Part shown: positions 30,236 to 58,978 of the stretch, one piece after another
How the letters are laid out: each line of letters begins with the position of its first letter
How positions within the stretch are numbered: position 1 is the first letter of the stretch
IMG/VR virus record: IMGVR_UViG_2923339551_000004
DNA: 60,308 nucleotides
Direction: 5' to 3' (one strand)
From: a virus
Lineage: Duplodnaviria > Heunggongvirae > Uroviricota > Caudoviricetes
The notes under the pieces: generated by a model
What the model saw: the letters and a program-made list of their open reading frames with translations, nothing else
The model's database searches: none
What the model was told of the DNA's origin: nothing
Translations under genes and position numbers: made by a program

Positions 30236-30472
30236 TTAAACTACCCACTCACCTCGAATCCATGCCTGCACTTCTGAAAGACGATATGCAACAGCAGTGG
30301 AACCAATCTTGATCCGCTTAGGAAATTTTCCTTCCTTCTCCAGCTTCCAGCGTGTGCTGTTCGCAAGAGTGGTTAGCTCCCGACATTCTTTCTCACGGAT
30401 CATTCGGTCAATGTTAGGAATGTACTCCAGACCCTTTTTATCAACAATTGCCATTTTTTTCATGTTAACCAA
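30236..30472 (-). CDS. alpA: AlpA-family transcriptional regulator / excisionase-like
   Basis: 78 aa, ...ELTTLANSTRWKLEKEGKFPKRIKIGSTAVAYRLSEVQAWI; directly downstream of the integrase. Confidence 0.7.
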   Translation of the reverse strand: MVNMKKMAIVDKKGLEYIPNIDRMIREKECRELTTLANSTRWKLEKEGKFPKRIKIGSTAVAYRLSEVQAWIRGEWVV

Positions 30473-31700
30473 CCTTTTGTTTGAGGATTGTCACTTTTGA
30501 ATCAGCACCTGCGATGCTATTGAGATATGTAGTCCAGAGTTCCAGAGCATCCAGTTTTTTAGCCATAAACTTACTCCGGTTGTAAACACCTGCCACGCCA
30601 GGTAGCGCATGGCCTAACAGTTGTTCTACTACATAAAATTCAACACCGAGATCACTTAGATGAGTAGATAGCGTTCTTCTAAGGTCGTGTAGTGACCATT
30701 GTTTTTCATGGCCCAAACGTTTACCGATTTTCCCCCCAATCTTGCTTACGCTTTCTCTAATTCGCAGACTTCCCAGCACATAACCAGTATGTTTTGTCTC
30801 TTCGTGAACATCCGTTACCCACTGTCGTAGAATTTCAGGTACTGGTCTGACGATTTCAACACCAGTTTTTGAGTGATCTTTTGGTACAGTCCAAACCCAA
30901 CTTTCGAGATCCCATTCGCTCCATTCTGATAATCGGGCTTCACTCATTCGACATCCAAATACTGTACAAAGCACAAACATTTTTCGCGTGTATTCAGACA
31001 TTAGTTTTAAATCAGGCTCGACAAAAATTGCCTTCCAGAGCTGGCCGAGTTCGGCTTCATCCAGAACCCGATCCCGCTTACCTGCAATCTGCCCCACATC
31101 ACTCATGCGCAAATCCTTTAAAGCATCACACGTCGCGTACTGGCGTACCCGACAAAAACGAAGAGCTAATTTAGTGTCAGAAAAAACATACGCCGCCATA
31201 ACTGGTGCATTACGTTTAATTCGGTCAAAACAGTCCAGCCATTCATATAGGTGAGTGTCATTTACGGGCAAATGACCGATATAGGGAAAGATATGCTTTC
31301 GAAATCTGCCAAGCGTTACAGCATGAGTTTTACGACGCACCTTACAGTAATTTTCATACCAGTAATTTAGTGCATCCTCCACTGTAACCGGCTTTAAGCG
31401 TTCTTCAGCCTGAATCTTAATCTGGATACGCGGATCACGTTTGTCAGCCAACCAACCACGGCACTCGTCGCGCTTTTCCCTTGCCTGTTTGAGTGACATA
31501 TCAGGATATTTACCCAACGTTAGCCAGACCGGAGCAGCCCGGCCACCTGCTAACCTGTAGAAGAAAACAAAGCTCACAGCCCCTTTAGTACTCACACGAA
31601 TAGAAAGCCCCTTTCCATCAGCAATGGTGATCTGCTTTTCTCTGGGTTTCCCCAGATATCCTTTAAGCGCTTTGTCGCTCAGTTTGTTCTCGCCAGCCAT
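30465..31700 (-). CDS. int: tyrosine recombinase / integrase (P4-type), satellite
   Basis: C-terminal catalytic region with HDLRRT and LLGH...Y motifs; start placed at MAGENKL (track ORF extends to 31751); adjacent to the att repeat. Confidence 0.85.
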   Translation of the reverse strand: MAGENKLSDKALKGYLGKPREKQITIADGKGLSIRVSTKGAVSFVFFYRLAGGRAAPVWLTLGKYPDMSLKQAREKRDECRGWLADKRDPRIQIKIQAEERLKPVTVEDALNYWYENYCKVRRKTHAVTLGRFRKHIFPYIGHLPVNDTHLYEWLDCFDRIKRNAPVMAAYVFSDTKLALRFCRVRQYATCDALKDLRMSDVGQIAGKRDRVLDEAELGQLWKAIFVEPDLKLMSEYTRKMFVLCTVFGCRMSEARLSEWSEWDLESWVWTVPKDHSKTGVEIVRPVPEILRQWVTDVHEETKHTGYVLGSLRIRESVSKIGGKIGKRLGHEKQWSLHDLRRTLSTHLSDLGVEFYVVEQLLGHALPGVAGVYNRSKFMAKKLDALELWTTYLNSIAGADSKVTILKQKVG

Positions 31701-38635: not shown

Positions 38636-38996
38636 ACATCCCGGTTTCTTCCACCATCGCACCGGAAAAGCGACTATGAGGGTAACCCTGCGTCTGTCAG
38701 CACAGTAAAACCCGGTGTGCATCGTTTTTGATTATTCCCGCACACTCACGCAGAAGGAATTCCCCGTCGGGCTACGGTCATGGTTAATGCGGGAATACGG
38801 CGACGATACAGCGCAGCTAAAAGGGTAATGGACAGAAAGAGCGGTTTATTTCATTCCACAGGATTCTGAGTGCCCCCCCCTCCTCCAATAGGCTGAGCAT
38901 CCACCTATATAGTTTTAATTTTCATCAATCCATTTAACTATCGTTTAATTGTTGTCACATAGGATTCTGCCGTTTTTAACAATGCAGGATAATAAG

Positions 38997-39290
38997 ATGA
39001 AAAAAATGTTGTTTTCTGCCGCTCTGGCAATGCTTATTACAGGATGTGCTCAACAGACGTTTACTGTTGGAAACAAACCGACAGCAGTAACACCAAAGGA
39101 AACCATCACCCATCATTTCTTCGTTTCGGGAATTGGACAGGAGAAAACTGTTGATGCAGCCAAAATTTGTGGCGGCGCAGAAAATGTTGTTAAAACAGAA
39201 ACCCAGCAAACATTCGTAAATGGATTTCTCGGTTTTATTACTTTAGGCATTTATACTCCGCTGGAAGCGCGTGTGTATTGCTCACAATAA
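38997..39290 (+). CDS. bor: Bor lipoprotein
   Basis: MKKMLFSAALAMLITGCAQQTFTV...; lipobox LITGC; start placed at MKKML. Confidence 0.9.
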   Translation: MKKMLFSAALAMLITGCAQQTFTVGNKPTAVTPKETITHHFFVSGIGQEKTVDAAKICGGAENVVKTETQQTFVNGFLGFITLGIYTPLEARVYCSQ

Positions 39291-39321: not shown

Positions 39322-39783
39322 CTATCTGCACTGCTCATTAATATACTTCTGGGTTCCTTCCAGTTGTTTTTGCATAGTAATCAGCCTCTCTCTGAGGGTG
39401 AAATAATCCCGTTCAGCGGTGTCTGCCAGTCGGGGGGAGGCTGCATTATCCACGCCGGAGGCGGTGGTGGCTTCACGCACTGACTGACAGACTGCTTTGA
39501 TGTGCAACCGACGACGACCAGCGGCAACATCATCACGCAGAGCATCATTTTCAGCTTTCGCATCAGCTAACTCCTTCGTGTATTTTGCATCGAGCGCAGC
39601 AACATCACGCTGACGCATCTGCATGTCAGTAATTGCCGCGTTCGCCAGCTTCAGTTCTCTGGCATTTTTGTCGCGCTGGGCTTTGTAGGTAATGGCGTTA
39701 TCACGGTAATGATTAACAGCCCATGACAGGCCGACGATGATGCAGATAACCAGAGCGGAGATAATCGCGGTTACTCTGTTCAT
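39322..39783 (-). CDS. Rz: inner-membrane spanin Rz
   Basis: [36 protein letters not shown]..., lambda Rz. Confidence 0.9.
39381..39563 (-). CDS. Rz1: outer-membrane lipoprotein spanin Rz1, embedded in Rz in the +1 frame
   Basis: [24 protein letters not shown]...PPPPPAW. Confidence 0.9.
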
Positions 39784-40277
39784 TGCTGACCCCACAAACA
39801 GATTTCACGCTCAATCTCACGACGAGTCATGAGACCTTTCCATTGCTTACCGCCAGCATATGTCCAGCGACGTAGCTGATCACATGCGCCTTTAATATCA
39901 CCCTGGTTTATTTTGCGAAGAAGCGTCGATGTTCTGAAATTGCCAGCACCCACGTTGTAGACGAACGAGTAAAGAGCGCCGCGCGTTGTTTCCGGTATAT
40001 CGACTTTGATGTACGGGTTAATTTGTCTGGCGACAGTGGCAAGGTCTTTATTCAGGAGGGCTTTGCACTCTGCTTCGGTATACGTTTTACCGGGAATGAT
40101 GTCTTTTCCTGTATGCCCGTGACATACAGTCCATACACCAACTATGTCTTTGTAAGGATTATGTCTCACACCTTCCAGACCATCGTTACCACTTGGGCCA
40201 GTGATTAATACAGATGCTATAGCAATAGCCCCGCCACCAATAGCAGCAGCAACAGCTTTTCGTAATGATGGAGGCAT
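39780..40277 (-). CDS. R: SAR endolysin (T4-lysozyme-like), phage-21 type
   Basis: [37 protein letters not shown]... N-terminal signal-anchor-release domain; matches the P21 endolysin, not lambda R. Confidence 0.9.
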
Positions 40278-40492
40278 TATCCACCTCTCGCAGCCTTGCG
40301 CTTATCTTCTTTAATCTTGAAATAAAGGTTTGTCAGGTACGTCAGCAGGCCAAATACCAGGCTACCCAGCACTCCAATTGCCGCCCACTGTGAGGGCGTG
40401 ACTTTATCTAGCAGCTGTAAAAACCAGTACCCGGCACTACCTGCTGAGGTGCCATAGGCGACACCCGTTGTTAACTTATCCATGGATTTCAT
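40277..40492 (-). CDS. S: pinholin S21
   Basis: [26 protein letters not shown]..., two TM segments, basic C-terminus. Confidence 0.9.
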
Positions 40493-41064
40493 AACCCCAC
40501 CTCGCAGACAAAGCGGGTGTAAATTGAGGGAATACTACGAAACGTAACAGACTCGGAGTCAGTGAATAACTCAGGTATTGGGTTATCAGCTAATATCGAG
40601 ACTCAAAAAATGGAAAAACCCGCTCGACGGCGGGTTTAAGCTGTGTGACGAAGTAACCACTCTTAACAGCATAACCAATTTTTTACGTACGTAAACCACT
40701 AAATGATATTTGCGAGAATGCTACCGAGTATTGAAAACACCACTACAAATACATAAGCAAATCTCAACAAATAACCAACAAATAATTTCCAGTGTTATTT
40801 TTAGCTGGTTTAAATTGAACCTTCAAATTATAGAGCACTTATAAATAACAGCCGTTAATATAAATTGGCTAACAGATTTATTTTTATTCAGCCAAGAGCC
40901 ATGAATAGGATTCGATAGAAAAAAGTTCAGATAAAAATAGAGATCTACTTCACAAATCAAACGAGAAACCAAAACTTACATCTTGAAATAATCACATTGA
41001 TTAGATGAATATTTATCGCGCAGTGACATCATTTTTTAATAATAGTTCAAAAAAAGGGCTCACG

Positions 41065-42162
41065 ATGAAAAAATTAACAGTGGCAATTTCTGCTGTAGCT
41101 GCATCAGTACTGATGGCGATGTCTGCTCAGGCAGCTGAAATTTATAATAAAGACAGTAACAAGCTGGATCTGTACGGGAAAGTTAATGCTAAGCACTACT
41201 TCTCCTCTAATGATGCAGATGATGGTGATACTACTTATGCCCGTCTTGGCTTCAAAGGTGAAACCCAAATCAACGATCAACTGACTGGTTTCGGTCAGTG
41301 GGAATATGAATTCAAAGGCAACCGCGCTGAATCTCAAGGTTCCTCCAAAGATAAAACCCGTCTTGCCTTCGCTGGCCTGAAATTCGGTGACTACGGCTCC
41401 ATCGATTACGGCCGTAACTACGGTGTAGCATACGACATCGGTGCGTGGACTGACGTCCTGCCAGAATTCGGTGGTGACACTTGGACTCAAACCGACGTGT
41501 TCATGACTCAACGTGCAACTGGTGTTGCAACCTATCGTAACAACGACTTCTTTGGTCTGGTTGATGGTCTGAATTTTGCTGCTCAGTACCAAGGCAAAAA
41601 CGATCGTAGCGATTTCGATAACTACACTGAAGGTAACGGTGATGGCTTCGGTTTCTCTGCTACCTATGAATACGAAGGATTCGGTATCGGTGCAACTTAT
41701 GCGAAATCTGATCGTACCGACACTCAAGTTAATGCAGGGAAAGTTCTTCCTGAAGTATTTGCTTCCGGTAAAAATGCAGAAGTTTGGGCCGCAGGTCTGA
41801 AATATGACGCTAACAACATTTACCTGGCCACTACCTATTCTGAAACCCAGAATATGACTGTATTTGCTGATCACTTCGTTGCTAATAAAGCCCAAAACTT
41901 CGAAGCTGTTGCACAATATCAGTTCGATTTCGGTCTGCGTCCGTCCGTTGCTTACCTGCAATCTAAAGGTAAGGATCTTGGAGTATGGGGCGATCAGGAC
42001 TTAGTCAAATATGTTGATGTAGGTGCAACCTATTACTTCAACAAAAATATGTCTACTTTCGTTGATTACAAAATCAACCTGCTTGACAAAAATGACTTCA
42101 CTAAAGCACTCGGTGTAAGCACTGATGACATCGTTGCTGTAGGTCTGGTTTACCAGTTCTAA
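41065..42162 (+). CDS. nmpC: phage-borne outer membrane porin (NmpC/Lc-like)
   Basis: Signal peptide [23 protein letters not shown], beta-barrel porin sequence ending ...VGLVYQF. Confidence 0.9.
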
Positions 42163-52876: not shown

Positions 52877-53012
52877 AAAACTTATGGCTATCCAGACAAA
52901 ATTCACTATTGCCACTTTTATTGGCGATGAAAAGATGTTTCGTGAGGCCGTCGACGCTTATAAAAAATGGATATTAATACTGAAACTGAGATCAAGCAAA
53001 AGCATTCACTAA
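52869..53012 (+). CDS. kil: Kil
   Basis: [47 protein letters not shown], 47 aa. Confidence 0.85.
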
Positions 53013-53383
53013 CCCCCTTTCCTGTTTTCCTAATCAGCCCGGCATTTCGCGGGCGATATTTTCACAGCTATTTCAGGAGTTCGGCCATGAACGCTTATTA
53101 CATTCAGGATCGTCTTGAGGCTCAGAGCTGGGCGCGTCACTACCAGCAGATAGCCCGTGAAGAGAAAGAGGCAGAACTGGCAGACGACATGGAAAAAGGC
53201 CTGCCCCAGCACCTGTTTGAATCGCTATGCATCGATCATTTGCAACGCCACGGGGCCAGCAAAAAAGCCATTACCCGTGCGTTTGATGACGATGTTGAGT
53301 TTCAGGAGCGCATGGCAGAACACATCCGGTACATGGTTGAAACCATTGCTCACCATCAGGTTGATATTGATTCAGAGGTATAA
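52967..53383 (+). CDS. gam: Gam (RecBCD inhibitor)
   Basis: 138 aa, [36 protein letters not shown]... Confidence 0.95.
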
Positions 53384-53388
53384 AACGG

Positions 53389-54174
53389 ATGAGTACAGCA
53401 CTCGCAACGCTGGCAGGGAAGCTGGCTGAACGTGTCGGCATGGATTCTGTCGACCCACAGGAACTGATCACCACTCTTCGCCAGACGGCATTTAAAGGCG
53501 ATGCCAGCGATGCGCAGTTCATCGCATTGTTGATCGTCGCCAACCAGTACGGCCTTAATCCGTGGACGAAAGAAATTTACGCCTTCCCTGACAAGCAGAA
53601 CGGCATCGTTCCGGTGGTGGGCGTTGATGGCTGGTCCCGTATCATCAATGAAAACCAGCAGTTTGATGGCATGGACTTTGAGCAGGACAATGAATCATGT
53701 ACATGCCGGATTTACCGCAAGGACCGTAATCATCCGATCTGCGTTACCGAGTGGATGGATGAATGCCGCCGCGAACCATTCAAAACCCGCGAAGGCAGAG
53801 AAATCACCGGACCGTGGCAGTCGCATCCCAAACGGATGTTACGGCATAAAGCCATGATTCAGTGTGCCCGTCTGGCCTTCGGATTTGCTGGTATCTATGA
53901 CAAGGATGAAGCCGAGCGCATTGTCGAAAATACCGCATACACTGCAGAACGTCAGCCGGAACGCGACATCACTCCGGTTAACGATGAAACCATGCAGGAG
54001 ATTAACACTATGCTGATTGCCCTGGACAAAACATGGGATGACGACTTATTGCCGCTCTGTTCCCAGATATTTCGCCGCGACATTCGCGCATCGTCAGAAC
54101 TGACACAGGCCGAAGCAATGAAAGCTCTTGGATTCCTGAAACAGAAAGCCTCTGAACAGAAGGTGGCTGCATGA
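53389..54174 (+). CDS. bet: Bet (Red-beta single-strand annealing protein)
   Basis: 261 aa, [35 protein letters not shown]... Confidence 0.95.
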
Positions 54175-54851
54175 CACCGGACATTATCCTGCAGCGTACC
54201 GGGATCGACGTGAGAGCTGTCGAACAGGGGGATGATGCATGGCACAAATTACGGCTCGGCGTCATCACCGCTTCAGAAGTTCACAACGTGATAGCAAAGC
54301 CCCGCTCAGGAAAGAAGTGGCCTGACATGAAAATGTCCTACTTCCACACCCTGCTGGCTGAGGTTTGCACCGGTGTGGCTCCGGAAGTTAACGCTAAGGC
54401 GCTGGCCTGGGGAAAACAGTACGAGAACGACGCCAGAACCCTCTTTGAGTTCACTTCCGGCGTTAATGTTACTGAATCCCCGATCATCTATCGCGACGAA
54501 AGTATGCGCACCGCCTGCTCTCCCGATGGTTTATGCAGTGACGGCAACGGCCTTGAACTGAAATGCCCGTTTACCTCCCGGGATTTCATGAAGTTCCGGC
54601 TCGGTGGTTTCGAGGCCATAAAATCGGCTTACATGGCCCAGGTGCAGTACAGCATGTGGGTGACGCGAAAAGATGCCTGGTACTTTGCCAACTATGACCC
54701 ACGAATGAAGCGTGAAGGCCTGCATTATGTCGTGGTTGAGCGGGATGAAAATTACATGGCGAGTTTTGACGAGATGGTGCCGGAGTTCATCGAAAAAATG
54801 GACGAGGCACTGGCTGAAATTGGTTTTGTATTTGGGGAGCAATGGCGATGA
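54171..54851 (+). CDS. exo: Exo (lambda exonuclease)
   Basis: 226 aa, [38 protein letters not shown]... Confidence 0.95.
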
Positions 54852-55030
54852 CGCATCCTCACGATAATATCCGGGTAGGCGCGATCACTTTCGTCTACTC
54901 CATTACAAAGCGAGGCTGGGTATTTCCCGGCCTTTCTGTTATCAGAAATCCCCTGAAAGCACAGCGGCTGGCTGAGGAGATAAATAATAAACGGGGAGCT
55001 GTATGCACAAAGCATCTCCCGTTGAGTTAA
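54842..55030 (+). CDS. lambda orf60a homolog
   Basis: [28 protein letters not shown]... Confidence 0.8.
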
Positions 55031-55194
55031 GAACGAGTATCGAGATGGCACATAGCCTCGCTCAAATTGGAGTCAGGTTTGTGCCAATACCAGTAGAAAC
55101 AGACGAAGAATTTCATACGTTAGCCGCATCCCTTTCACAAAAGCTGGAAATGATGGTGGCGAAAGCAGAAGCAGATGAGAGAGACCAGGTATGA
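55003..55194 (+). CDS. lambda orf63 homolog
   Basis: [37 protein letters not shown]... Confidence 0.8.
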   Translation: MHKASPVELRTSIEMAHSLAQIGVRFVPIPVETDEEFHTLAASLSQKLEMMVAKAEADERDQV

Positions 55195-55270
55195 CAACCA
55201 CTGAATGCATTTTTCTGGCAGCGGGCTTCATATTCTGTGTGCTTATGCTTGCCGACATGGGGCTTGTTCA

Positions 55271-55486
55271 ATGACACCTCAGCAAGAAAACGCCCTTCGC
55301 AGCATTGCCCGTCAGGCTAATTCTGAAATCAAAAAAGCCAGACAGCAGTTTCCGGATAAAAACGTCGATGACATTTGCCGTAGCGTACTAAAGAAGCACC
55401 GCGAAACGGTAACGCTGATGGGATTCACACCGACTCATTTAAGCCTGGCGATCGGCATGTTGAACGGCGTCTTTAAGGAACGGTGA
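55271..55486 (+). CDS. lambda orf61 homolog
   Basis: MTPQQENALRSIARQANSEIKKARQQFPDKNVDDICRS...; start inside the longer track ORF. Confidence 0.75.
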   Translation: MTPQQENALRSIARQANSEIKKARQQFPDKNVDDICRSVLKKHRETVTLMGFTPTHLSLAIGMLNGVFKER

Positions 55487-55584
55487 ACATGAAAAGCAAA
55501 ATCATCAGGGAGCTACAGGCTCCTTTTTTATTATTCGCATTCACCCTCAAGCGTATTAACCAACAATTCAGGGATTAATGAAAG

Positions 55585-55806
55585 ATGGCAGACATCATTG
55601 ATTCAGCATCAGAAATTGAAGAATTACAGCGCAACACAGCAATAAAAATGCGCCGCCTGAACCACCAGGCTATATCTGCCACTCATTGTTGTGAGTGTGG
55701 CGATCCGATAGATGAACGAAGACGCTTGGCCGTTCAGGGTTGTCGGACTTGTGCAAGTTGCCAGGAGGATCTGGAACTTATCAGTAAACAGAGAGGTTCG
55801 AAGTGA
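55585..55806 (+). CDS. TraR/DksA-family C4 zinc-finger protein (lambda orf73-like)
   Basis: CCECGDPIDERRR...CRTCASC. Confidence 0.8.
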   Translation: MADIIDSASEIEELQRNTAIKMRRLNHQAISATHCCECGDPIDERRRLAVQGCRTCASCQEDLELISKQRGSK

Positions 55807-56351
55807 GCGAAATTAACTCTCAGGCACTGCGTGAGGCGGCAGTAGCAATTGAAACAGTAGCAACACCTCAAAAATTGCTGGCATTTCGTATGAAAGTCAC
55901 ACCTCAGGTTGTGCTGGCTCTACTGGATGAACGAGATGCATTAAATGAACGCCTAGCCGAACTGGAGGCTGATTTAGCAGGGCTGGCCGAAGACCACCAG
56001 AAAGCGACTGAGTCAATTAAGCAGGCTGATGCAGCTGTTAAGTTGGCACACGAGAAGTTTTCGGCGCTGGCGGCGGAGAATGAGCTGGCTCGTAAAGCAG
56101 TTCAGGAATTCTGCGATGTTGTTGGCGACAGCACCGAGGTTATCTGCGAGGAGATTGGGAGAGATGGTGTTCTGGTTATTTTGGAGGCCATGAAGGCAAC
56201 AGGAAATATGCCAGCCACCGATGCTTTCCTGGCTGAAGTACGGGCGCAGGGGGTGGAGATGATGCGCGAACATCCATCAATCAAACTTTGCTCTTTGACG
56301 CACATATGTGATGAGTTAGCCGCCCAGCTTCGCAAAGGAGGCAACCAGTGA
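55803..56351 (+). CDS. ea22: Ea22-like protein (conserved N-terminus, divergent remainder)
   Basis: 182 aa; MSEINSQALREAA as in lambda Ea22, the rest coiled-coil-like and different. Confidence 0.6.
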   Translation: MSEINSQALREAAVAIETVATPQKLLAFRMKVTPQVVLALLDERDALNERLAELEADLAGLAEDHQKATESIKQADAAVKLAHEKFSALAAENELARKAVQEFCDVVGDSTEVICEEIGRDGVLVILEAMKATGNMPATDAFLAEVRAQGVEMMREHPSIKLCSLTHICDELAAQLRKGGNQ

Positions 56352-56481
56352 CTGGACATGCAGCAATCCTCGACATGTGCTGTGGCAGTCGCATGTTCTG
56401 GTTAGATAAGAATGACGAACGGGCGAGATAAGCGATCGGTTAAGTGCTATAGTAATGCGCTTTTGTATTTATGGAGTGAAT

Positions 56482-57180
56482 ATGAAAAATATCCTACTGG
56501 CATCATTGTTAGTGGCATCGCCGGGTGCATTTGCAGCCAGCTTTGACTGCCAAAAGGCTTCGACAGCAATCGAACATAAAATCTGCGATAACGAACGTCT
56601 GTCAAAATTAGACGAACAGCTTAGCTCTGCCTATTCTAGTGCCCTCAAAGGAAACCCAGAGAACGCAGACACCCTAAAAATGGTTCAACGTCAGTGGGTA
56701 AATATGCGTGGAAAACTCACTGATAATAAGGCTCTGGAGCTGGCTTATCTTATCCAAATTAATGGCCTCAAAGGTTTGGGGAGTTCAGTCAGCGTAACAG
56801 CGGCCAATGACATACCCACGTCGGCGCAGAAACATTCTAAAGAGCAGGAAGATACAAGTAAGGCAGAAGCTAAGTCGGTCAAGAACGGCAATAAGCTAAC
56901 CTTAGAGTCATTCCGAGCTAAATATGTAGAAGTAGATGGTGAGTATTACAGCACGACATCCATTCCTAGAGGCAGTTCGTTCTTGTTCACTTGCGCTAGT
57001 CGTATTGCTGATGACCAAGTGAATATTTGGAAGAAACAGGCAGCCAAAGAGGGCAAAATCGACCTATTCTTTGAGGTTGAGAATCACTTACACACGGCTA
57101 TGTTGAACGCCAATTTTCAGAAGTTGAATTCAGACCCTGCCAAAAGAGGTATTTGTAATCTGATTAACGCAGTGCCGTAA
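56482..57180 (+). CDS. secreted DUF1311 (lysozyme-inhibitor LprI-like N-terminal domain) protein, moron
   Basis: Signal peptide MKNILLASLLVASPGAFAA; SFDCQKASTAIEHKICDNERLSKLDEQLSSAY...VQRQW; RBS ggagtga; occupies the ea8.5 position. Confidence 0.6.
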   Translation: MKNILLASLLVASPGAFAASFDCQKASTAIEHKICDNERLSKLDEQLSSAYSSALKGNPENADTLKMVQRQWVNMRGKLTDNKALELAYLIQINGLKGLGSSVSVTAANDIPTSAQKHSKEQEDTSKAEAKSVKNGNKLTLESFRAKYVEVDGEYYSTTSIPRGSSFLFTCASRIADDQVNIWKKQAAKEGKIDLFFEVENHLHTAMLNANFQKLNSDPAKRGICNLINAVP

Positions 57181-57189
57181 GTAAATTTA

Positions 57190-57225
57190 GGGCCACAGTT
57201 GTGGCCTTAAATATTTTTTTCAGCC
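57190..57225 (+). terminator. intrinsic terminator after the DUF1311 gene
   Basis: gggccacagttgtggcc followed by a T-rich run. Confidence 0.6.
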
Positions 57226-57416
57226 TTTTCTTATTTGTAATAAGCAGTACTTGGTAGTGCTTATAAAACAGAATAAAAAATATATGACTTTGGCGATTAC
57301 CCAGTAAAGATATTCGAAATAAATGTAAATATCGACAATGAATAACTATCCTCGCACTCGCGGGGATTTCTTTTATCTGAACTCGCTACGGCGAGTTTTT
57401 TTTATGGAGATGATAA

Positions 57417-57584
57417 ATGCACTTCCGAGTCACAGGTGAATGGAATGGAGAACCATTCAACAGAGTTATCGAAGCCGAGAACATCAGCGACTGCTATGAC
57501 CACTGGATGCTGTGGGCGCAGATAGCACATGCAGACGTAACCAATATTCGAATTGAAGAACTGAAAGAACACCAAGCCGCCTGA
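57417..57584 (+). CDS. small conserved ORF upstream of xis (55 aa)
   Basis: MHFRVTGEWNGEPFNRVIEAENISDCYDHWMLWAQIAHADVTNIRIEELKEHQAA; below the ORF-track size cutoff; followed by hairpin gccgcctgatggcgg plus T-run. Confidence 0.6.
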   Translation: MHFRVTGEWNGEPFNRVIEAENISDCYDHWMLWAQIAHADVTNIRIEELKEHQAA

Positions 57585-57623
57585 TGGCGGTTTTTTCTTG
57601 CGTGTAATTGCGGAGACTTTGCG

Positions 57624-57842
57624 ATGTACTTGACACTTCAGGAGTGGAACGCACGCCAGCGACGCCCAAGAAGCCTTGAAACAGTTCGTCGATGGGTACG
57701 CGAGTGCAGGATATTCCCTCCTCCGGTTAAGGATGGAAGAGAGTATCTGTTCCACGAATCAGCGGTAAAGGTTGACTTAAATCGACCAGTAACAGGTAGC
57801 CTTTTGAAGAGGATCAGAAATGGGAAGAAGGCGAAGTCATGA
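57624..57842 (+). CDS. xis: excisionase Xis
   Basis: 72 aa, MYLTLQEWNARQRRPRSLETVRRWVRECRIFPPPVKDGREYLF... Confidence 0.95.
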   Translation: MYLTLQEWNARQRRPRSLETVRRWVRECRIFPPPVKDGREYLFHESAVKVDLNRPVTGSLLKRIRNGKKAKS

Positions 57843-58890
57843 GCGCCGGGATTTACCCCCTAACCTTTATATAAGAAACAATGGATATTACTGCTACAGG
57901 GACCCAAGGACGGGTAAAGAGTTTGGATTAGGCCGAGACAGGCGAATCGCAATCACTGAAGCTATACAGGCCAACATTGAGTTATTTTCAGGACACAAAC
58001 ACAAGCCTCTGACAGCGAGAATCAACAGTGATAATTCCGTTACGTTACATTCATGGCTTGATCGCTACGAAAAAATCCTGGCCAGCAGAGGAATCAAGCA
58101 GAAGACACTCATAAATTACATGAGCAAAATTAAAGCAATAAGGAGGGGTCTGCCTGATGCTCCACTTGAAGACATCACCACAAAAGAAATTGCGGCAATG
58201 CTCAATGGATACATAGACGAGGGCAAGGCGGCATCAGCCAAGTTAATCAGATCAACACTGAGCGATGCATTCCGAGAGGCTATAGCTGAAGGCCATATAA
58301 CAACAAACCCGGTCGCAGCCACTCGCGCTGCAAAATCAGAGGTAAGGAGATCAAGACTTACGGCTGACGAATACCTGAAAATTTATCAAGCAGCAGAATC
58401 ATCACCATGTTGGCTTAGACTTGCAATGGAACTGGCTGTTGTTACCGGGCAGCGAGTTGGTGATTTATGCGAAATGAAGTGGTCTGATATCGTAGATGGA
58501 TATCTTTATGTCGAGCAAAGCAAAACAGGCGTAAAAATTGCCATCCCAACAACATTGCATGTTGATGCTCTCGGGATATCAATGAAGGAAACACTTGATA
58601 AATGCAAAAAGATTCTTGGCGGAGAAACCATAATTGCATCTACTCGTCGTGAACCGCTTTCATCCGGCACAGTATCAAGGTATTTTATGCGCGCACGAAA
58701 AGCATCAGGTCTTTCCTTCGAAGGGGATCCGCCTACCTTTCACGAGTTGCGCAGTTTGTCTGCAAGACTCTATGAGAAGCAGATAAGCGATAAGTTTGCT
58801 CAACATCTTCTCGGGCATAAGTCGGACACCATGGCATCACAGTATCGTGATGACAGAGGCAGGGAGTGGGACAAAATTGAAATCAAATAA
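57820..58890 (+). CDS. int: lambda integrase Int
   Basis: 356 aa, MGRRRSHERRDLPPNLYIRNNGYYCYRDPRTGKEF... Confidence 0.95.
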   Translation: MGRRRSHERRDLPPNLYIRNNGYYCYRDPRTGKEFGLGRDRRIAITEAIQANIELFSGHKHKPLTARINSDNSVTLHSWLDRYEKILASRGIKQKTLINYMSKIKAIRRGLPDAPLEDITTKEIAAMLNGYIDEGKAASAKLIRSTLSDAFREAIAEGHITTNPVAATRAAKSEVRRSRLTADEYLKIYQAAESSPCWLRLAMELAVVTGQRVGDLCEMKWSDIVDGYLYVEQSKTGVKIAIPTTLHVDALGISMKETLDKCKKILGGETIIASTRREPLSSGTVSRYFMRARKASGLSFEGDPPTFHELRSLSARLYEKQISDKFAQHLLGHKSDTMASQYRDDRGREWDKIEIK

Positions 58891-58963
58891 TGATTTTATT
58901 TTGACTGATAGTGACCTGTTCGTTGCAACAAATTGATAAGCAATGCTTTTTTATAATGCCAAC

Positions 58964-58978
58964 TTAGTATAAAAAAGC
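58964..58978 (-). other. attL: prophage attachment junction core (attL type: B arm, core, P' arm)
   Basis: ttagtataaaaaagc is the reverse complement of the att-lambda core GCTTTTTTATACTAA, with P'-arm sequence on the int side and bacterial aggcttca on the ybhC side. Confidence 0.9.

Follow-up and report, generated by a model that had tools for sequence, protein, structure and literature searches.

A two-domain exported DUF1311/LprI-family protein encoded by an accessory cassette in the early-left region of a lambda-like prophage

The gene and its setting in the prophage

The window (the whole 60,308-nucleotide stretch of DNA analyzed here) includes a lambda-like prophage, inserted at the lambda attachment site, whose early-left region (53000-58978) is 99.98% identical to phage ev099. 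Homology to lambda extends from 53699 to 55847, where it breaks off inside ea22 (lambda position 30352), and picks up again at 57342 (lambda 29361), which is 13 nt beyond the stop codon of ea8.5, so that the interval 55848-57341 replaces most of ea22 together with ea8.5. An earlier note had placed a gene for an exported DUF1311 protein in the ea8.5 position and a small open reading frame between it and xis; the alignment bears out both placements, and the small frame (57417-57584) is the 55-aa orf of lambda. The gene lies exactly where the note had put it, with the ribosome-binding site and terminator that had been credited to it (Table 1). The terminator hairpin proper (57185-57212) has a predicted folding energy of -17.6 kcal/mol (z -4.6 against shuffled sequences) and is followed by AUAUUUUUUU. 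An in-frame ATG at 56455 would yield a 241-aa product and is used by some metagenome gene calls, but it is without a ribosome-binding site, and PGAP starts the gene at 56482.

Signals for transcription are less clear-cut. The motif TGnTATAGT has only 12 occurrences in the 60-kb window when both strands are counted, which makes 0.013 the number expected in the 130-nt spacer, and the copy upstream of the gene is conserved in the Salmonella phage-plasmid SSU5 and two other prophage contexts, and thus in all four contexts aligned. Because a standard -35/-10 scan returned no promoter upstream of the gene and no -35 element, this extended -10 motif can be called only a putative promoter of the gene's own.

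Table 1. Features of the cassette and its gene, in positions of the window
Feature	Position	Strand	Remarks
Methyltransferase remnant (SAM-dependent), 27 codons	56348..56431	+	VTGHAAILDMCCGSRMFWLDKNDERAR followed by a stop codon; scar of cassette arrival
Cassette shared with Salmonella phage-plasmid SSU5 (gene SSU5_101)	56413..57220	+	83% nucleotide identity (blastn); flanks unrelated
Extended -10 promoter-like motif TGcTATAGT (putative own promoter)	56445..56453	+	28 nt upstream of ATG
Ribosome-binding site GGAG	56473..56476	+	5 nt before ATG; invariant in all four contexts aligned
CDS, exported DUF1311/LprI-family protein (PHROG 4675)	56482..57180, including stop codon	+	232 aa, ATG start
Predicted Sec (signal peptidase I) signal peptide, aa 1-18	56482..56535	+	predicted cleavage between AFA and AS; kept in homologues
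N-terminal DUF1311-like helical domain (predicted), aa 19-100	56536..56781	+	FDC23...IC35 motif; canonical C3/C4 are L79 and A84
Disordered, fast-evolving linker (predicted), aa 101-136	56782..56889	+	pLDDT <50; length and sequence variable; dN/dS 1.14
C-terminal domain (predicted), aa 137-232	56890..57177	+	beta-hairpin and three helices; C171 and C225 conserved, N209 invariant
Intrinsic terminator	57185..57222	+	12-bp stem, 4-nt loop, U-run; hairpin kept in SSU5

Several further features lie around the gene. The ea22-like gene upstream (55803-56351, plus strand) is a mosaic that matches lambda ea22 over its first 14 residues (~45 nt) and differs over the remainder, with an identical length of 182 aa; it shows no similarity to SSU5_100, and the idea that it travels with the cassette was rejected. 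Upstream again, a 73-aa DksA-like zinc-finger open reading frame (55585-55806, plus strand) lies in DNA collinear with and ~97% identical to lambda 30393-30614, a stretch in which NC_001416 annotates no gene. Downstream of the cassette follows an AT-rich spacer (57221-57341, GC ~0.34) that is common to other lambdoid carriers, but not to SSU5 or lambda, and that holds a promoter-like site on the minus strand (57308-57279). Many lambdoid and Stx phages conserve the stretch 57287-57416 at 88-89%, and in HK022 the annotated tL4 terminator overlaps it; two consecutive terminator-like hairpins (57348-57398, plus strand) stand just 5' of the 55-aa orf. Elsewhere in the prophage, the lysis cassette (39780-40492, minus strand) is of the phage-21 type, with a 71-aa S21-like pinholin and a 165-aa R21-like SAR endolysin followed by Rz and Rz1. 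SAR endolysins of the R21 type are periplasmic, membrane-tethered muramidases that accumulate in the periplasm before lysis.

Origin and distribution of the cassette

The replaced interval preserves a trace of what preceded the cassette. The 27-codon methyltransferase remnant has a strong ribosome-binding site (AAGGAGG) and overlaps the stop codon of the ea22-like gene; in strain S1-CAM-01-C, PGAP annotates the matching stretch as an incomplete methyltransferase, and in the Stx2c phage EH0430 an intact 175-aa methyltransferase gene occupies the same place after an ea22-like gene. The remnant here and the intact gene in EH0430 therefore argue that the cassette replaced the body of a methyltransferase gene, and on this comparison it was evidently such a gene, not ea8.5, that the immediate ancestor of the insertion site held.

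The block held in common with SSU5 measures 808 bp and begins ~70 nt before the ATG and takes in the terminator hairpin. G+C content in the gene is 0.42-0.45, compared to 0.50-0.52 upstream. Three lambdoid mosaics that differ in recombination genes, integrase and attachment site (tRNA-Thr/proA in one carrier, next to mdtA in another) contain the same block; in each of them, no other accessory gene comes between it and the 55-aa orf, xis and int. The suggestion in the earlier note that the gene is a moron holds for its structural part, given a discrete insert shared with unrelated replicons, a lower G+C content, a terminator and a conserved extended -10 motif, whereas promoter activity and expression in the lysogen we infer from that motif. 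These comparisons support the view that the gene is a self-contained phage accessory cassette of ~0.8 kb.

As an annotation the gene is not new. Automated pipelines already recognize it, and the name "lysozyme inhibitor LprI family protein" is attached to it in ev099 (whose gp35 is a 100% identical protein), in E. coli genomes and in SSU5-like phage-plasmids; the subfamily is nevertheless uncharacterized, and we found no literature on phage or prophage LprI-like genes or on members of the present subfamily. Among 5426 complete E. coli genomes, 124 (~2%) carry the gene, with 108 matches on chromosomes and 17 on plasmids, and the carriers include many avian, porcine and human isolates. The full-length gene is also found on 126 plasmids, mostly ~110-kb non-mobilizable replicons of Enterobacter, Citrobacter and E. 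coli, and most of these plasmid carriers are SSU5-like phage-plasmids.

More distant relatives extend beyond temperate elements. Full-length homologues with 26-31% identity occur in the strictly lytic T4-like Aeromonas phages 44RR2.8t, Aes012 and CC2 and share the signal peptide, the cysteine pattern and the two-domain layout. Klebsiella phage Marfa encodes a homologue with the same layout, for which the tblastn match covers query residues 1-179 only, and phage RB49 shares the N-terminal module only. In 44RR2.8t and Marfa the gene is situated in the early region after the primase gene, with a dCTPase (gp56-like) gene following closely, and in a metagenomic T4-like contig the homologue likewise follows a gene in the primase position; most metagenomic contigs with distant homologues were too short for gene context. 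A further full-length homologue (30% identity) was found in a small island that splits comM and also encodes an EcoRV-like endonuclease, a D12-class methyltransferase, an HTH regulator and two serine recombinases.

Family assignment and domain anatomy

The protein begins with MKNILLASLLVASPGAFA, followed after the predicted cleavage point by ASFDC. This N-terminus has a single basic residue, a hydrophobic core of 9-10 residues (Kyte-Doolittle maximum 2.97) and an A-x-A cleavage site, and such features, together with their conservation in all homologues, predict a classical Sec signal peptide. A lipobox is absent: the residues before C23 are S-F-D, and the A-x-A signal peptidase I site lies upstream. 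In the Pfam profile search the protein matches PF07007 (LprI/DUF1311) at 25.2 bits, above the gathering score of 22 (E 2.2e-5), and 11 of 12 full-length family members match it as well (best 4e-9). Both the signal peptide and the DUF1311 cysteine motif proposed in the earlier note, whose joint or separate absence was named there as grounds for giving up the assignment, were thus borne out. The family match is nonetheless partial: the alignment is limited to aa 23-78, equivalent to profile positions 1-70 of 106, and the RNxCxDxxC positions found in 142 relatives are L79 and A84 here, leaving the protein without the four-cysteine pattern of DUF1311. PHROG 4675 (function unknown) matches end to end (3.5e-94). 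Searches with the protein yielded only sub-threshold matches in NCBIfam and no match among the PADLOC defence models, and the MliC domain (PF09864) was not found in it even at E up to 10.

Structure prediction with AlphaFold2 from a 12-sequence alignment gave a whole-protein pTM of only 0.45, with the N-domain predicted to be helical (pLDDT 82-90 over aa 19-100). Predicted alone, the C-domain reached a pLDDT of 91 and a pTM of 0.83, with a beta-hairpin followed by three helices. The N-domain model superposes on the solved DUF1311 protein PP0307 of Pseudomonas putida (PDB 3GI7) with 1.9 A over 66 residues, and is thus predicted to have the helical-bundle fold of solved DUF1311 proteins. In addition to the bundle, the signal peptide and the FDC...IC and QRxW motifs are shared with PP0307, but the protein here lacks the third and fourth canonical cysteines and adds a 36-residue disordered linker and a 96-residue domain with its own cysteine pair. 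Sequence searches of the PDB with the protein and with the family profile returned nothing meaningful (6ar7 only at E 1.2), and for the C-domain we found no solved structural relative and no relative of known function by sequence or structure. A reading of the C-domain as a second, degenerate DUF1311 repeat was rejected, as hhalign of the N- against the C-domain gave a probability of <1%. Two cysteines in each domain (C23 and C35; C171 and C225) are conserved among full-length homologues, and we infer that the protein contains disulfides.

Compared with the SSU5 copy, dN/dS is 0.08 in the N-domain, 1.14 in the linker and 0.07 in the C-domain, and therefore indicates two constrained domains and a neutral tether. 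The models and this pattern point to a flexible linker that joins two folded domains, the first a DUF1311/LprI-like helical bundle and the second, the C-domain, of alpha/beta type. They also bear on whether the gene is merely a decaying or functionless passenger, a notion prompted by its having no known phenotype and by the laboratory dispensability of this region of lambdoid genomes. Such strong purifying selection on both domains, an open reading frame intact in 124 E. coli genomes and 126 plasmids, and an architecture kept down to 26-31% identity in distant phages make it very improbable.

An exhaustive HMMER search collected 5040 relatives, in which the two domains occur together in only about ten clusters; in the remainder the N-module is fused to other C-termini (ankyrin, SH3, trypsin-like, CHAT and OmpH). 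The C-domain is found mainly in phages and exists as a stand-alone 86-aa open reading frame in Aeromonas phage phiAS4. The wide fusion of the N-module suggests a generic periplasmic role for DUF1311. We also observed that the signal peptide followed by FDCxKAxTxxExxIC...QRxW is a very common bacterial N-terminal unit, sometimes present in up to five tandem repeats.

Possible functions of the protein

M. tuberculosis LprI (Rv1541c), as summarized in PMC7933661, also has an MliC domain, and it is this domain that is credited with lysozyme inhibition. Salmonella ScwA, a periplasmic, disulfide-bonded protein with DUF1311 only, did not make cells resistant to lysozyme; what it governs is the amount of the lytic transglycosylase MltD (PMC7933661). 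In enterohemorrhagic E. coli, the DUF1311 protein Etsi4 relieves the toxicity that the T6SS effector Etse4 has in the periplasm (PMC12981562), and LprI-domain proteins are predicted to be orphan immunity genes beside lysozyme-like effectors (PMC9796082; PMC12135965). Taken together, what these DUF1311 proteins share is that they bind enzymes of the muramidase or transglycosylase type in the periplasm.

The earlier note had read the gene as a lysozyme inhibitor acting in lysogenic conversion, and neither element was upheld. A true inhibitor of animal (c-type) lysozyme that renders the lysogen more resistant in its host would accord with the Pfam and PGAP name, the PF07007 match, the avian, porcine and human isolates among the carriers and the 2016 work on LprI as summarized in PMC7933661 and PMC12981562. 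However, the domain held responsible in LprI is missing from the present protein, DUF1311 without it gave no lysozyme resistance in ScwA, and the protein has no lipobox, unlike the bona fide membrane-bound inhibitors. LprI shares with it a DUF1311 domain and export to the envelope, but is described in that summary as a lipoprotein, and membrane anchoring through a lipobox is a feature of the proven MliC/PliC-type inhibitors and of functional LprI alike. Nor would resistance to animal lysozyme bring any gain to lytic T4-like phages of Aeromonas and Klebsiella. Full-length homologues in the early regions of strictly lytic phages imply that the function also serves the lytic cycle and not only the lysogen, and these sites together with the defence island make it unlikely that lysogenic conversion against animal lysozyme is its whole role; we regard inhibition of animal lysozyme as improbable.

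Alternatively, the protein might modulate peptidoglycan enzymes of the cell in which it is made, either a host lytic transglycosylase or the SAR endolysin of the phage, which would be buffered so that lysis is timed. The pinholin and SAR endolysin of this prophage are suited to the second variant, and T4-like carriers of the gene tell against it, since such phages are expected to lyse the cell by a cytoplasmic endolysin and holin T. The carrier in the comM island is without lysis genes, and in the prophage the gene sits in an early operon, not in the lysis cassette. For the first variant the precedent is ScwA and its control of MltD levels (PMC7933661). ScwA resembles the present protein as a soluble periplasmic DUF1311 protein that has no MliC domain and whose four conserved cysteines are distributed along its full length, but its DUF1311 domain is C-terminal (aa 185-271 of 275), and it is encoded by a horizontally acquired Salmonella gene for which no phage context was reported (PMC7933661). 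We consider a modulator of the cell's or the phage's own enzymes unlikely.

The C-domain raises a further alternative. Since relatives combine the N-module with C-terminal domains of very different kinds, this module may be a generic periplasmic scaffold with specificity residing in the C-domain. Carried further, DUF1311 would be a mere scaffold or anchor, and the C-domain would act apart from peptidoglycan hydrolases, for instance in receptor masking or in a block of DNA entry like Cor, Llp or Imm. The strong constraint on this domain, its occurrence mainly in phages and as the stand-alone phiAS4 frame, and the early-gene position in lytic phages, which suits exclusion functions, are all compatible with such an activity. 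The C-domain has, however, no relative of known function, so that positive evidence for this reading is missing, and the hosts of the carriers have different receptors. We hold it to be possible, if doubtful.

We propose instead, with a probability of roughly one in three (0.35), that the gene is a moron encoding a soluble periplasmic two-domain protein that neutralizes incoming muramidase and so provides exclusion or immunity. During lytic growth, transcription of the early-left operon from pL would include the gene as its final accessory member, and in the lysogen transcription would probably start from its own extended -10 promoter, with its own terminator stopping it before xis and int. 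Sec export would deliver the protein to the periplasm in soluble form, where it would bind and neutralize a peptidoglycan-cleaving enzyme arriving from outside, such as a lysozyme-like T6SS effector or the lysozyme that a superinfecting phage carries on its tail, leaving the infected or lysogenic cell protected. Protection against incoming muramidase seems to fit all contexts best, as the early regions of lytic T4-like phages and a comM island with restriction-modification genes both count for a protective role that suits phages and defence islands alike.

The closest functional precedent for neutralizing an incoming muramidase is T4 Spackle (gp61.3), which is made early, resides in the periplasm and causes superinfection exclusion by inhibiting the gp5 tail lysozyme (PMC7677548). 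The analogy is one of function only, that of a phage early product exported to the periplasm, and a comparison of Spackle with the present protein found no similarity in sequence or fold. Homologues of the present gene occupy the same primase-proximal early region of T4-like genomes as Spackle, and since Klebsiella phage Marfa has both, the gene is not a simple substitute for it. Toward DUF1311-type T6SS immunity proteins (Etsi4 and the orphan genes of Pantoea) the likeness lies in having no effector next to the gene, as is typical of an orphan immunity gene, and no partner gene was found adjacent to the coding sequence. Yet the protein differs from these in its two domains and in being phage-borne, in lytic phages as well, and it is encoded outside T6SS/hcp islands, the neighbours being phage early genes in all contexts inspected for such islands. 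Against the muramidase reading stands the truncated family match of the N-domain (profile positions 1-70 of 106), without two of the four canonical cysteines.

A broader version of this proposal, which we put forward as speculative and unlikely as it stands, is that lambdoid phages, SSU5-type phage-plasmids, lytic T4-like phages and defence islands share a widespread family of periplasmic muramidase blockers, in which a DUF1311 module joined to a new C-terminal fold acts as a Spackle-like exclusion or immunity factor. If so, prophages and phage-plasmids would be spreading a simple envelope-level defence among Enterobacteriaceae, with bearing on host range in phage therapy and on T6SS competition, and DUF1311 would gain a tested function outside T6SS islands. 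The two-domain build and the spread over temperate, plasmid-borne and lytic phages make the protein a reasonable candidate for a simple test of exclusion or immunity. For annotation, the lesson is that the name "lysozyme inhibitor LprI family protein" overstates what is known of DUF1311-only proteins.

With the lambdoid morons lom and bor the cassette has in common that it is a discrete insert with a terminator, a putative promoter and a lower G+C content, present or absent between otherwise homologous phages. Those morons lie in the late region, whereas the present gene lies inside the pL early-left operon, and expression is therefore expected during lytic growth as well. Other envelope-directed morons accompany it in the prophage, namely genes for a Bor-like lipoprotein (38949-39290, plus strand) and an OmpD/NmpC-like porin (41005-42162, plus strand) between Q and the lysis genes, and Lom, an AraC-family regulator and IS fragments are also present in the ev099 b region.
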